NCBI GenBank assembly: GCA_029838215.1
Contig: JALGVI010000067.1
Span: 1-16,200, forward strand
DNA length: 16,200 nucleotides
Reading direction: 5' to 3'
Origin: Candidatus Helarchaeota archaeon
GTDB lineage: Archaea; Asgardarchaeota; Lokiarchaeia; Helarchaeales; RDOG01
Under the pieces are notes generated by a model. That model made no database searches. It was given only the letters and a program-made list of their open reading frames with translations, and was not told the origin of the DNA. A program made the translations under genes and the position numbers. Below are positions 12,295 through 16,139 of this stretch, piece by piece; within the stretch, counting starts at the first letter, position 1, and every line of letters starts with the position of its first letter.

Positions 12295-13203
12295 ATGAAG
12301 ATGGAGATATTAATGGACACAGTTCGGGATTTAATTTCAGGATCAAGAAACGTGTTCCTTAGAGTGAAAGTACTTGAGAAAATTCATGAGAGAGAAGTGA
12401 TAACGAGAAAAGATGGAATGAAACACCGTGTTTCAGATTTTCTTGTTGGAGATCACTCAGGCAAGATCAAATTGGTTTTATGGGACAACGAGATCGATAA
12501 GGTTAAAGTAAATAGCGAAATTGAAATCAAAAACGGCTACGTTGATAAGTATTTTGGCGAATTGCAATTAAATTTGGGACTTTACGGGTCTTTAAACACC
12601 ATTGAACCCATTCAGGTCAAAGATGTAATCAGTTCCCTGCAACTAAAGAAAAAAAAGTATTATAGTCGATCACGTAGAAAATGGAAAAAATCTTATTGGA
12701 GTTCTAAATCACGGGGTCAGTCTCATTGGATTACTCCACTCGTAATCGTGAGTCTTGTGATGATCATTCTCTTCGGTTTTCTTTTTATGAACGTTGGGAC
12801 TAATTTAGTTCCTTGGGACCAAAATCCTGGAGAACTTGGAAGCACGTGGGAAAAAGATGCCAGTGGGATGGTCACCTATATTGTCGATGGCGACACGCTT
12901 GACGTGAGTGGACTGGGACGAATCAGACTAGCGGACATTGACACGCCAGAATCATACGAACCGGGTTATACCGAAGCCAAGAATTATTTGTCTTCACTCG
13001 TGAACGGACAAAATGTATTTGTGGACATCGATGATATCTATAAAACGGACAAATACGGAAGGTACGTTGCCGTGATTTACTTGAAACATAATGCCACACA
13101 TTATAAAAATATCAACAAGGCAATGTTGGACTCTGGACATGCCGATATTACCGATTACTACAACGAGTTCAGTCCATACTCATGGAGCTTGTACGTGATT
13201 TGA
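12295..13203 (+). CDS. Fusion protein: archaeal SSB/RPA-type OB fold, basic linker, single TM helix, thermonuclease (SNase) domain
   Basis: OB fold: VRDLISGSRNVFLRVKV...LVGDHSGKIKLVLWD...IKNGYV...ELQLN. TM: ITPLVIVSLVMIILFGFLFMNV. SNase motifs IVDGDTL, IRLADIDTPES, DKYGRYVA. Likely start is ATG 12313, after GGAG at 12303-12306. Confidence 0.88.
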   Translation: MKMEILMDTVRDLISGSRNVFLRVKVLEKIHEREVITRKDGMKHRVSDFLVGDHSGKIKLVLWDNEIDKVKVNSEIEIKNGYVDKYFGELQLNLGLYGSLNTIEPIQVKDVISSLQLKKKKYYSRSRRKWKKSYWSSKSRGQSHWITPLVIVSLVMIILFGFLFMNVGTNLVPWDQNPGELGSTWEKDASGMVTYIVDGDTLDVSGLGRIRLADIDTPESYEPGYTEAKNYLSSLVNGQNVFVDIDDIYKTDKYGRYVAVIYLKHNATHYKNINKAMLDSGHADITDYYNEFSPYSWSLYVI

Positions 13204-13267: not shown

Positions 13268-13744
13268 CTAACAGGACTCTTTTGGCTTGAGCTTTTTAGC
13301 AGGGTCCGGATATTTCTTGCAGATTTCTTCATGATAACAAGGGTCATTCCAAGTCCTTTTGATTTCTTCGATCAAGGTTTCGTAAGGTATTTCGATGAAT
13401 TTAGGTTCGATTTTGAATTTAGGAGGATATAGATAATCGTCGACTTTTTCACCATCAAAAGTCAAGACCCGCACGGGGTTATGCCCTATCACGATTTGCA
13501 GGACGATTTCGTGTGGGATTTTGGGCAAGATATATTTCCGGACGATGATTTCCAAGCACTTAATAGACAGATATAATGCACGTGCATCCCTGAAGTGAAC
13601 CTCATTCTTGATCTCTTCGTTTAAGATACGGTTAAATTCGGGAATGCATTCCTTGATGATGTCATCTAAAATGTTTCCGTCCATAAAGCCCCATTTATGC
13701 AGGAGGTCCTCGGTAAGAAATAGCACGGATCTTCCGTGCATCAT
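13268..13744 (-). CDS. Hypothetical soluble protein, 158 aa
   Basis: Strong SD (GGTGGTGA) just upstream, co-directional with and 25 nt from the next gene, protein-like composition. No family recognised. Confidence 0.7.
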   Translation of the reverse strand: MMHGRSVLFLTEDLLHKWGFMDGNILDDIIKECIPEFNRILNEEIKNEVHFRDARALYLSIKCLEIIVRKYILPKIPHEIVLQIVIGHNPVRVLTFDGEKVDDYLYPPKFKIEPKFIEIPYETLIEEIKRTWNDPCYHEEICKKYPDPAKKLKPKESC

Positions 13745-13769: not shown

Positions 13770-14246
13770 TCAATATTTAAACAGAAATTTCATGATTTCA
13801 CGTTTCTTCCTTAGCCACCAGATATACCCGCACACGCAAGCCGACACGTCAATTATTAAGAATATCACGATGAGAAACGTGAAGAAGATCGTCAAGAGGA
13901 TGCTTATTGCAATTAAAATTCCGAGTGAAAAAAACAAGGAATACTTGATGTTTTTCATTTCTTCCTTGATCATTGATTTTCGTTCTTCATCCTCGCTCAG
14001 TCGGGATTCAAAAATGGAAAAATCACGTATTTGCACGCGGTCCCATTTTTGACGTTCGTTTTGTCGTTCAATCTCCCATTTTGCGAGTTCGGTTTTAGAA
14101 ATGCCTTTTCTATAAAGCGGATCATCTAAATGTCGCCAGCATATTCTTTTTTGATTGGAAAGCCGATACATTTCGCCGATCCGAATAATGCGACCGCATA
14201 ATGAACAGGAATGTTCTTCGATTGCCTTCCTTTCGGTCGTAGACAT
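13770..14246 (-). CDS. Hypothetical membrane protein with N-terminal C-x2-C-x18-C-x2-H putative zinc finger and C-terminal TM hairpin
   Basis: CSLC...CWRH; charged helical middle; long hydrophobic stretch YSLFF...GYIWW followed by LRKKR. Confidence 0.7.
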   Translation of the reverse strand: MSTTERKAIEEHSCSLCGRIIRIGEMYRLSNQKRICWRHLDDPLYRKGISKTELAKWEIERQNERQKWDRVQIRDFSIFESRLSEDEERKSMIKEEMKNIKYSLFFSLGILIAISILLTIFFTFLIVIFLIIDVSACVCGYIWWLRKKREIMKFLFKY

Positions 14247-14409: not shown

Positions 14410-15591
14410 TTGGAGTTGGAAGATCCTGAAAACACGGAAATAATTGACCACATGAACATTGCTTTAAAGAAGTTAAGAATGTGGGTCGAAAAGCGGGAAT
14501 TTACCACGAAATCGGAGAGATTTGAAGGAAGGTCACCGATTGGAGCAGTTACTGCCCCTATCCGCGGCGTGAATCACGTATTTGTTGCGATTTCACGAGA
14601 CAATGAAGATTACATACCTGAGTTGGAGCAAACGCTCCTGATTTTCGAAGAAAAAGGAAACGAGATTCTTTCAGGGATAGTAGAGGATTATCGGGTATCG
14701 AAATCCGATTTAGAAGCAGGAAAGGCACTTTTAAAAGTTCGGCTTTTAAAATCTCACGGAGTATCACTTCGGGACATAAGGCGAATAAAGGGCATTCCCA
14801 CGCCAGGATCGCCCGTGTTTCAGGCACTCACGGAGGAAATATTAGCGGTTTATGGTCTGCCGTCACCTTCAGAGGGCATTTCTCTCGGTGTCATTTGTGA
14901 GCATGAGGACATGATGCGGATACAAGATATGCCGGTCAAGTACATCTTGAAGGATTCGTTTTTAGGGAAGCACATTGCCATAGGAGGATTGACGGGGCAG
15001 GGGAAGACCATACTATTGAAAAACCTCATTCTGGAGTTGGCAGACAAGCAAACAAACCTTGTAGTCATCGACACGCAAGGAGATCTTTGTCAAATCATGA
15101 AACCGATGTTCGAGGATTTCATTGACGTGGATGCAAAAATAATACTGAATGAACTTGGTCTTCGTCTTGAGGGGCTTGAAGACATCCTCATGATTCGAGA
15201 CATGGAATTCTACAAGCCATTCTTTGTTGATCTCGAGGGATTCTTGAATGTTTTTCCGTGGCGCGATTTTGGCATCGAGTCTAGGAATATAAAGACAGGA
15301 GAAGAGCTTGCTCTTTACTTGCCCGAACTAACAAACAAGGCACAAGACATCCTCGAGGCACTATTCAAGTTATACATGGAAAAAAAAGATGTATTTGATT
15401 TCAACGATTTCTATCAATGGGTCGAAACGACGAAGCAAGAGGAAAAAAATCAGTGCTATTGGACTTCAGCCGATGGAACTCTTGAAATAAGAGCAAGCGG
15501 ACCGAGTGCTCAAAATTTATTGCGTGAGTTGGCAAATTTTCTCGCCCGCAGGATTTTTGATGAGGTTCCGCAACCGGACATCCTCGAATAA
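14410..15591 (+). CDS. HerA-type ATPase, N-terminal fragment (HAS-barrel-like region plus Walker A)
   Basis: AGGAG SD before the TTG start; barrel-like segment ending IPTPGSPVF; KHIAIGGLTGQGKT Walker A; VVIDTQGD. Confidence 0.7.
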   Translation: MELEDPENTEIIDHMNIALKKLRMWVEKREFTTKSERFEGRSPIGAVTAPIRGVNHVFVAISRDNEDYIPELEQTLLIFEEKGNEILSGIVEDYRVSKSDLEAGKALLKVRLLKSHGVSLRDIRRIKGIPTPGSPVFQALTEEILAVYGLPSPSEGISLGVICEHEDMMRIQDMPVKYILKDSFLGKHIAIGGLTGQGKTILLKNLILELADKQTNLVVIDTQGDLCQIMKPMFEDFIDVDAKIILNELGLRLEGLEDILMIRDMEFYKPFFVDLEGFLNVFPWRDFGIESRNIKTGEELALYLPELTNKAQDILEALFKLYMEKKDVFDFNDFYQWVETTKQEEKNQCYWTSADGTLEIRASGPSAQNLLRELANFLARRIFDEVPQPDILE

Positions 15592-16139
15592 AAGGTTACG
15601 AAGAACTCCGCACGCTTTTATTATTCGAACTGATTTCAAGGATTATTGGCTTCAAGACACAAGCTGCAAACAAGGGAAGAATAGATGACTTCCTAAAAAG
15701 GCAGAGCGTCGTGTTAATTGATGAGGCACACGAATTAATCCCGAATCCTCACGGAACTACTGGACGTGAAAATTCATTTTCCAAGCATGTTGATGAGGAA
15801 TTTAGGATCGTTGCCACGGAAGGACGGAAATACATGGTATCCATCATCTCAGCATCCCAAAGCCTCCGCAAGCTTAATCCAAACGTGGTGGAGCAGTCAA
15901 ACACGTTGATTCTCTTTCGTGGCTCTAAGGCAGATATTGACACGCTTAGCGTGCCTGCGAATATAAAAAAGGATTTATTGGGATTAAAAGTAGGGCACGC
16001 CATCGTGTATTGTCCCGGTAACTTGCCAACGAAAAACTCCAGCGAAATTCACATATATCCGCCAAGATTTCTGCACGTAAACCCACTAAAAGCGACAATG
16101 CTTTTCCTTGAAGGTAAAATCAAGAAATATAAATTTTAA
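15564..16139 (+). CDS. HerA-type ATPase, C-terminal fragment (Walker B, Arg finger); includes track ORF 15711..16139
   Basis: IKGYEELRTLLLFELISRIIGFK...VVLIDEAHELIP...VATEGRKY...SASQS...VVEQSNTLILFR...LKVGHAIV. No canonical start upstream of Walker B. Confidence 0.65.
   Translation, partial: GSATGHPRIKGYEELRTLLLFELISRIIGFKTQAANKGRIDDFLKRQSVVLIDEAHELIPNPHGTTGRENSFSKHVDEEFRIVATEGRKYMVSIISASQSLRKLNPNVVEQSNTLILFRGSKADIDTLSVPANIKKDLLGLKVGHAIVYCPGNLPTKNSSEIHIYPPRFLHVNPLKATMLFLEGKIKKYKF

Follow-up and report, generated by a model that had tools for sequence, protein, structure and literature searches.

Several described proteins come close to the one considered here. Staphylococcus aureus Nuc2 is a staphylococcal nuclease-type (SNase) enzyme with an N-terminal membrane anchor, and Bacillus subtilis YhcR combines oligonucleotide-binding (OB)-fold domains with an SNase domain. 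Bacterial ComEC unites, in one membrane protein, an OB fold, a channel and a metallo-beta-lactamase nuclease acting on extracellular DNA. Surface SNases of Haloferax (Hvo_1477) and Bacillus digest extracellular nucleic acid, and Haloferax volcanii grows less well on extracellular DNA once Hvo_1477 has been deleted (PMC3929857); Table 2 of that paper includes YokF, YhcR, YncB and Nuc. Here we describe a gene of a Candidatus Helarchaeota archaeon, located on the 16,200-nucleotide stretch of contig JALGVI010000067.1 that was analysed (the window), which encodes an OB module of the single-stranded DNA-binding protein (SSB) type joined to an SNase domain through a single predicted transmembrane (TM) helix. 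The two domains are predicted to lie on opposite sides of the membrane.

The gene occupies a single open frame of 302 amino acids (aa) plus stop, without an internal stop codon. Its features are given below; invariance refers to alignment A1, which contains the query and 17 relatives.

12295-13203, + strand: whole open reading frame (ORF), comprising OB module, basic linker, TM helix and SNase domain (ORF reading and Pfam); the identical protein is found on two other contigs, L030 and L031
12301-12609, + strand: SSB-type OB fold, residues 3-105 (Pfam PF21473, PDB, NCBIfam, AlphaFold2 and Foldseek)
12646-12738, + strand: basic aromatic linker, residues 118-148 (sequence); KKKKYYSRSRRKWKKSYW corresponds to residues 118-135 (12646-12699)
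12649-12656, + strand: A8 homopolymer in the linker, a possible frameshift site through which the frame stays open; same sequence in three assemblies
12739-12795, + strand: single TM helix, residues 149-167 (about 146-168), predicted signal-anchor with the N-terminus inside (hydropathy and charge bias)
12850-13200, + strand: SNase domain, residues 186-302, predicted extracellular (Pfam, PDB and Foldseek)
12886-12897, + strand: DGDT, residues 198-201; D198, G199, D200 and T201 are all invariant
12925-12951, + strand: R211 ... D216-T-P-E219; R211 and P218 are invariant and E219 nearly so
13048-13062, + strand: DKYGR, residues 252-256; D252, Y254 and R256 are invariant
13090-13098, + strand: N-A-T sequon, residues 266-268, the sole sequon of the protein, in an SNase loop (sequence)

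Judged from sequence and structural model, the N-terminal part is a complete SSB-like module, consisting of an OB fold and a basic aromatic tail, and is predicted to bind single-stranded DNA (ssDNA). Residues 22-100 matched the Ssb-like_OB family (PF21473) with 31.6 bits against a gathering score of 24 (E 1.9e-7), and the OB domain matched Saccharolobus (Sulfolobus) SSB (1O7I/2MNA) with an E-value of 3e-9. Query residues W63, Y82 and Y86 align with W56, W75 and F79 of the Saccharolobus protein, which we take to be the residues that stack on ssDNA. The best NCBIfam model was the SSB model PRK06461 (E 9.5e-23), which covers the OB domain and most of the tail (residues 10-136); as a whole-protein equivalog, it scored 81 bits, below its cut-off of 188. 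By these matches, the OB domain is a member of the Ssb-like_OB domain family and not an ortholog of the named SSB. In the AlphaFold2 (AF2) model, built on alignment A3, the predicted local distance difference test (pLDDT) score was 90-95 over residues 11-100. Foldseek placed 1o7i, human SSB1 (5d8f, 4oww) and Pyrococcus replication protein A (RPA) at the top of the matches for this domain, with target template-modelling scores (TM-scores) of 0.76-0.79 to single-domain SSB chains (1o7i, 0.77; 5d8f, 0.78). A mixed all-domain alignment, A2, was discarded, as MAFFT had placed OB rows partly in the OB region and partly in the SNase region.

The linker that follows the OB fold is similar to the C-terminal tails, rich in RG and Y, of free SSB paralogs with a single OB. 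Over residues 17-142, the query runs collinear with one such tailed paralog encoded in its own genome, and its first 145 residues therefore have the appearance of a complete SSB gene together with the tail.

At the other end of the protein, the SNase domain keeps every catalytic and Ca2+-binding motif, and nuclease activity is predicted on this basis. Residues 209-293 matched PF00565 with 51.3 bits against a cut-off of 21 (E 1.8e-13), and PDB thermonucleases matched the SNase part at an E-value of ~1e-6. The core was modelled with a pLDDT of 84-88, and Foldseek aligned it to staphylococcal nuclease with an E-value of ~1e-5 and a target TM-score of 0.58-0.65. We take D200 to be the equivalent of the Ca2+ ligand D21 of the S. 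aureus nuclease, R211, D216, T217 and E219 to be those of R35, D40, T41 and E43, and R256 to be that of R87. Every catalytic and Ca2+-binding residue is present, and apart from D216 and T217 each occupies an invariant or nearly invariant column of A1.

The helix between the two domains has the properties of a signal-anchor. The best 19-residue Kyte-Doolittle window spans residues 149-167, with a mean of 2.79. Its flanks are strongly asymmetric: the 30 residues before the helix (119-148) contain 11 K/R and no D/E, and the 30 residues after it contain 1 K/R and 6 D/E. No N-terminal signal sequence precedes the folded OB domain. One hydrophobic helix, the lack of a signal peptide and a positive N-terminal flank together agree with a type II (signal-anchor) protein. 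An N-x-[ST] sequon is present in the same SNase loop in 100 of the 145 homologs in which this loop could be located. Because of the positive-inside rule, the lack of a signal sequence before the OB domain and the confinement of the sequon to the SNase domain, we place the SNase domain outside and the OB domain inside: the protein is most probably bitopic, with its N-terminus in the cytoplasm and its C-terminus on the outer face. An earlier note, made from the letters of the window without database searches, had proposed a single uninterrupted ORF with an archaeal SSB/RPA-like OB fold inside and an SNase domain with the expected catalytic motifs outside. Its reading of the frame and of both domains was borne out by the matches and models above, its positions for the linker, the A8 run, the helix, the three nuclease motifs and the sequon all check out, and the charge bias around the helix supports the sidedness that it assigned.

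We then considered the relatives of the protein. Sequence identity between the query SNase and a family of membrane nucleases from Asgard archaea is 52-74%. Among the 150 best matches of a HMMER search of 1.8 billion representative proteins, the order OB-TM-SNase was found in the query protein itself and in no other, and a word-based search for longer forms with this order turned up none. At least 26 other Asgard proteins, however, pair the same domains in the opposite order: a short K-rich N-terminus is followed by a first TM segment, the SNase domain, a PPPDPPPP-type stalk, a second TM segment, a K-rich stretch and the OB domain. Charges in these proteins are positive before the first and after the second TM segment and negative on the SNase side, a pattern that puts the SNase domain outside and the OB domain inside, the same predicted sidedness as in the query. 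The earlier note had counted it against its own reading if homologs always occurred as separate genes; fused relatives exist, in opposite order. The opposite-order fusions, such as P0026 from Lokiarchaeum GC14_75, P0008, P0009 and P0013, belong to the same SNase subfamily (52-60% identity in A1) and likewise have the OB joined across a TM segment by a strongly basic linker; they differ from the query in their reversed domain order, their two TM segments and their Pro-rich stalk. The conserved W and the aromatic positions are kept in the OB domains of both fusion types. The OB of P0026 matched replication factor A models best, whereas that of the query matched SSB models best, and the two are 26% identical. 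P0127 also has the opposite order, but with a different kind of OB.

Predicted cytoplasmic additions are not limited to OB domains in this subfamily, of which we collected 222 SNase members. The layouts TM-SNase-TM (127 of 222) and TM-SNase (63) were found, and about 50 members have a predicted cytoplasmic part of at least 45 residues. Six proteins bear an N-terminal CxxC Zn-ribbon before the helix, P0100 has a predicted cytoplasmic Rpp29-like barrel, P0216 has a tetratricopeptide repeat (TPR) tail on the predicted cytoplasmic side, and the Hodarchaeota-named P0031 and P0038 have a nucleotidyltransferase (NTase)-like domain alone on that side. Since proteins of either domain order repeatedly have a nucleic-acid-binding domain on the predicted inner side, the pairing of OB and SNase across the membrane looks selected, as far as sequence comparison can tell.

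Two of these groups deserve separate description. The Zn-ribbon proteins (P0096, P0106, P0061, P0053, P0037 and P0041), a separate class of metagenomic and Promethearchaeota proteins, have an N-terminal Zn-ribbon-like domain (CxxC...C, ~50 aa), followed by a basic stretch, a TM helix and the SNase domain; the layout is like that of the query, and the predicted cytoplasmic domain belongs to no Pfam family. P0233, P0031 and P0038 share the layout signal/TM, SNase, Pro stalk, TM and a ~300-aa domain with a GS...D.D motif. In P0233 (715 aa), the NTase-like domain is followed by two TFIIB repeats (E 1e-24), and this protein would hold a TFB core at the membrane, behind a nuclease on the cell surface.

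To trace the origin of the query, we compared its two halves separately. Its SNase clusters (SH-aLRT 87-90) with the N-anchored SNases P0003 and P0095, two proteins that lack an OB, and is 74% identical to that of P0003; the broad clade around this group includes the opposite-order fusions as well. Free paralogs from its own taxonomic order share 36-44% identity with the query OB. In the OB tree, 21 opposite-order OB domains formed one clade (100/100), apart from the query. An approximately unbiased (AU) test did not reject a tree in which the query OB and the opposite-order OB domains form a single clade (p 0.44), and the OB tree was dropped as a proof of independent fusion origins. Separate origins of the two fusion types are likely but unproven. 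The GC content at third codon positions (GC3) is 0.365 in the OB and linker half and 0.487 in the TM and SNase half. Half-ORFs of the genome average 0.38, and a jump of this size places the gene in the top 3% of similar-length ORFs, in agreement with acquisition of the SNase half. With this query, the SNase part had no match in six genomes of the same taxonomic order. Most likely, an N-anchored SNase gene, itself probably acquired from another genome, received a resident SSB gene (OB plus tail) at its front. An SSB gene upstream of the nearest TM-SNase genes, as a precursor of the fusion, was not seen in either of the two loci inspected (L112 and L113).

In the source genome (G000), the SSB-like OB proteins form an expanded set of eight paralogs, at the following positions:

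C4:13598-14287
C23:25998-26711
C92:29245-29958
C152:3692-5098
C13:35093-35758
C62:26157-26648
C33:1567-2301
C48:263-511

Several of the eight are tandem double-OB proteins of ~230-240 aa, and two are single-OB proteins with RG/S/Y-rich basic tails. The single-OB, RG/S/Y-tailed type recurs in all genomes of the same order that were examined (L021-L028). The same genome encodes an actin (441 bits on the Pfam actin model) and two nucleoside hydrolases; the actin and the named homologs together indicate an Asgard archaeon.

What might such a protein do? We give an even chance to the reading, drawn from sequence, model and analogy, that it is a surface SNase combined with a cytoplasmic binder of single-stranded nucleic acid, with some functional coupling between the two. 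The hydrophobic helix would act as a signal-anchor; the SNase domain on the cell surface would digest extracellular DNA or RNA, like Hvo_1477, YokF/YncB and Nuc2; and the SSB module just beneath the membrane would bind single-stranded nucleic acid. By this analogy, digestion of extracellular nucleic acid by the ectodomain can be reasonably inferred. The weakest step is the coupling of the two activities. The cytoplasmic module might catch single-stranded fragments imported by a separate channel, or it might position the nuclease at sites of nucleic-acid traffic. Any added role of this module, be it capture of imported strands, positioning of the nuclease, signalling or defence, is speculative.

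Several observations weigh against this reading. Activity and localisation are predictions from sequence and model, the topology specifically from hydropathy and the positive-inside rule, and the pLDDT of the AF2 model falls below 50 for residues 117-184, which include the linker and the helix. With one TM helix, the protein itself cannot be a channel, and the ComEC competence domain PF03772 was not found in the 94%-complete genome. All-against-all BLASTP of six loci gave no conserved neighbourhood: the fusion gene itself was the only gene that the window had in common with the opposite-order loci. Of 301 genomes sampled from the phylum, 5 had a match to the SNase subfamily (E <= 1e-20), a patchy distribution that suits an accessory gene. 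As its domain order is restricted to this organism among the best matches, the protein could be a young fusion on which selection has yet to act. Some of the cytoplasmic tails in the subfamily, such as the TPR tail, are not nucleic-acid binders. The earlier note had gone further and linked extracellular cleavage to capture of ssDNA in the cytoplasm; this link found no support, given the single TM helix, the failure to find ComEC in the 94%-complete genome and the differing neighbourhoods. The comparison of homolog neighbourhoods that it had proposed yielded no shared partner gene.

The gene neighbourhoods nevertheless contain a recurring arrangement. In both the window and locus L006, the fusion gene (+) is followed by two genes (-) and a DUF87 ATPase gene (+), with the ATPase 1-2 kb away. 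The two small (-) genes of the window and of L006 are unrelated. The arrangement is notable because only four DUF87 genes of the source genome pass the cut-off. However, the HerA/FtsK-like ATPases of the window and of L006/L007 share little beyond the P-loop region, a further point against the main reading. We kept the layout only as a lead and not as a conserved unit, in view of the dissimilar ATPases and small genes. The two small genes of the window (13268-13744, -, and 13770-14246, -) each encode 158 aa of no known family and lie between the fusion and ATPase genes; in the product of 13770-14246, an N-terminal CxxC motif is accompanied by a long hydrophobic segment at the C-terminus. At 15581/15582, 40 bp are missing from the window relative to L030 and L031, which splits the 587-aa DUF87/HerA-FtsK-like ATPase gene into two ORFs (14410-15591 and 15711-16139, both +). 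This deletion may be either a strain variant or an assembly error.

Against the models of archaeal DNA import, the window ATPase scored 44.7 bits for CedD (cut-off 600) and 16 bits for CedB (cut-off 700). This similarity is at the superfamily level only, and no Ced/Ted-type import system, with a CedB- or CedD-type ATPase and CedA membrane proteins, was recognised next to the gene. A DprA/Smf-family gene (E 5e-58) was found elsewhere in the genome (G000:C124:3027-3581, -), on a contig in an assembly with 6% estimated contamination. In L004, a marine sediment contig from an LCGC14-type Lokiarchaeon, an inosine-uridine nucleoside hydrolase gene (L004:9104-10024) starts 33 nt after the stop codon of the opposite-order fusion, on the same strand, which hints at nucleoside salvage. 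We count this gene, the two nucleoside hydrolases of the source genome and its DprA homolog in favour of the main reading. Within ~8 kb of several homologs, we also found genes for HsdR (L002), AbiTii (L004), an Eco57I-like methyltransferase/nuclease (L006) and a TIR protein (L008).

Other explanations have to be set against a coupled surface nuclease and SSB module. The gene might be an artefact of assembly or sequencing, in which two genes were joined by a miscounted A8 run or a chimeric contig. The homopolymer does lie within the linker, the 3.6-Mb source assembly consists of 170 contigs with 6.2% estimated contamination, and the window itself carries the 40-bp deletion in the next gene but two. 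However, the identical protein (P0002, start at Met7) is encoded on two ~44.7-kb contigs from other JGI metagenomes (L030 and L031), on both of which the flanking genes are the same. Over 6.3 kb, the two contigs show 4 and 19 differences from the window, none of them inside the fusion gene; as three assemblies from different samples thus have the same sequence, a chimera or a miscounted homopolymer is unlikely. In addition, the reading frame from the A8 run to the TM helix contains no ATG, GTG or TTG codon, as had been noticed from the sequence at the outset. The TM-SNase part has no start codon upstream of the helix from which it could be translated alone, which counts against two joined genes and agrees with the initial view that the gene is not an accidental junction. 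By its sequence, 12295-13203 is one real gene in which a frameshift at the A8 run is unlikely, and we consider an artefact highly improbable. Unlikely, yet deserving more weight, is a young and essentially neutral fusion, in which an N-anchored SNase gene gained by horizontal transfer was fused at its start, in frame, to an SSB paralog through a deletion, leaving an ordinary surface nuclease with the OB domain as a passenger. The restriction of the domain order to this organism, the failure of this query to find the SNase in the six genomes of its order, the GC3 discontinuity at the junction and the nearest SNases without an OB (P0003 and P0095) would all be explained in this way, and with eight OB paralogs in the genome, one may be dispensable. 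Such a passenger is difficult to reconcile with the same pairing and sidedness in the 26 or more opposite-order proteins, which are hard to explain without selection. The OB domain also keeps the conserved residues of its family and a confident fold, and the gene is identical in three population samples.

The remaining alternatives assign the cytoplasmic module another task. The protein might be a transmembrane sensor or a tethered regulator, in which the SNase domain reports or consumes extracellular nucleic acid and the cytoplasmic nucleic-acid-binding module provides the output, either kept at the membrane or set free, as with ToxR-like one-component regulators or factors under regulated proteolysis. 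The TFIIB core after the NTase-like domain on the cytoplasmic side of P0233 would suit this role, and the Zn-ribbons and TPR tail of other relatives resemble the variable outputs of sensor proteins. We nevertheless think a sensor distinctly unlikely for the query: an SSB-type OB is not sequence-specific and would be a poor transcriptional output, the fully kept catalytic residues suit an enzyme, and no protease or partner gene is conserved nearby. Doubtful to a slightly greater degree is a function as a barrier or defence gene, with the surface nuclease destroying foreign DNA and the OB domain handling DNA that gets through. This explanation draws on the restriction- and Abi-type genes near several homologs (L002, L004, L006 and L008), which would make it a defence-island gene, on the patchy distribution of the gene, and on two PADLOC matches, of the neighbouring ATPase (in its intact form) to the mad8/HerA models (E 5e-22) and of the SNase part to the candidate 'SNc+LTD' (E 1e-6). 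The proximity to defence genes is a raw co-occurrence that may be due to chance, an external nuclease cannot reach DNA delivered straight into the cytoplasm, and no fixed partner gene is common to the loci.

Beyond the single gene, the relatives raise a broader possibility, which we put forward tentatively and think less likely to be right than wrong by a wide measure. Asgard archaea may possess a hitherto undescribed class of transmembrane proteins in which a surface nuclease is tied to a cytoplasmic nucleic-acid-binding module, namely an SSB/RPA-type OB (in either order), a Zn-ribbon, an Rpp29-like barrel or a TFIIB core. Such proteins would form the receptor and processing part of an archaeal system for importing or sensing extracellular nucleic acid, possibly together with nearby HerA/FtsK-like ATPases. 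The varied cytoplasmic tails on Asgard surface SNases suggest cross-membrane communication rather than mere anchoring, and the same sidedness is reached with either domain order. The ways in which archaea take up or use environmental DNA have been worked out in a few lineages only, and no prokaryotes are more closely related to eukaryotes than the Asgard archaea. With its nuclease outside and its module for single strands inside, such a protein family would provide a testable handle on the uptake or use of environmental DNA in this group.

A literature search found no description of an SNase joined across the membrane to an SSB/RPA-type OB. The earlier impression that the architecture was undescribed thus stands as far as papers are concerned; it does not hold for sequence databases, in which the opposite-order fusion was already present. 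These proteins appear there under automatic names only: P0026 is a 'putative single-stranded DNA-binding protein', and P0008, P0009 and P0013 are named thermonuclease or hypothetical. Among characterized proteins, Hvo_1477 is likewise an archaeal surface-attached nuclease of the SNase family, but it is a lipoprotein anchored by a lipobox instead of a TM helix, has no cytoplasmic domain and carries an extracellular lamin-tail domain (LTD). Nuc2 and YokF/YncB/YhcR similarly hold Ca2+-dependent SNase domains at the cell surface; all of their domains are outside the membrane, and none is known to have a folded cytoplasmic nucleic-acid-binding module. Saccharolobus SSB (1O7I, 2MNA) and human SSB1/NABP2 (5D8F, 4OWW) share with the query a single OB with a flexible tail and the aromatic positions, but they are soluble, whereas the tail of the query runs into a TM helix and an ectodomain. 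ComEC also brings an OB fold and a nuclease for extracellular DNA together in one membrane protein; it differs in being a polytopic channel with both accessory domains facing outward and a nuclease of a different fold. Membrane-anchored SNases and soluble simple SSBs are thus both known, and their combination across the membrane is the new element.

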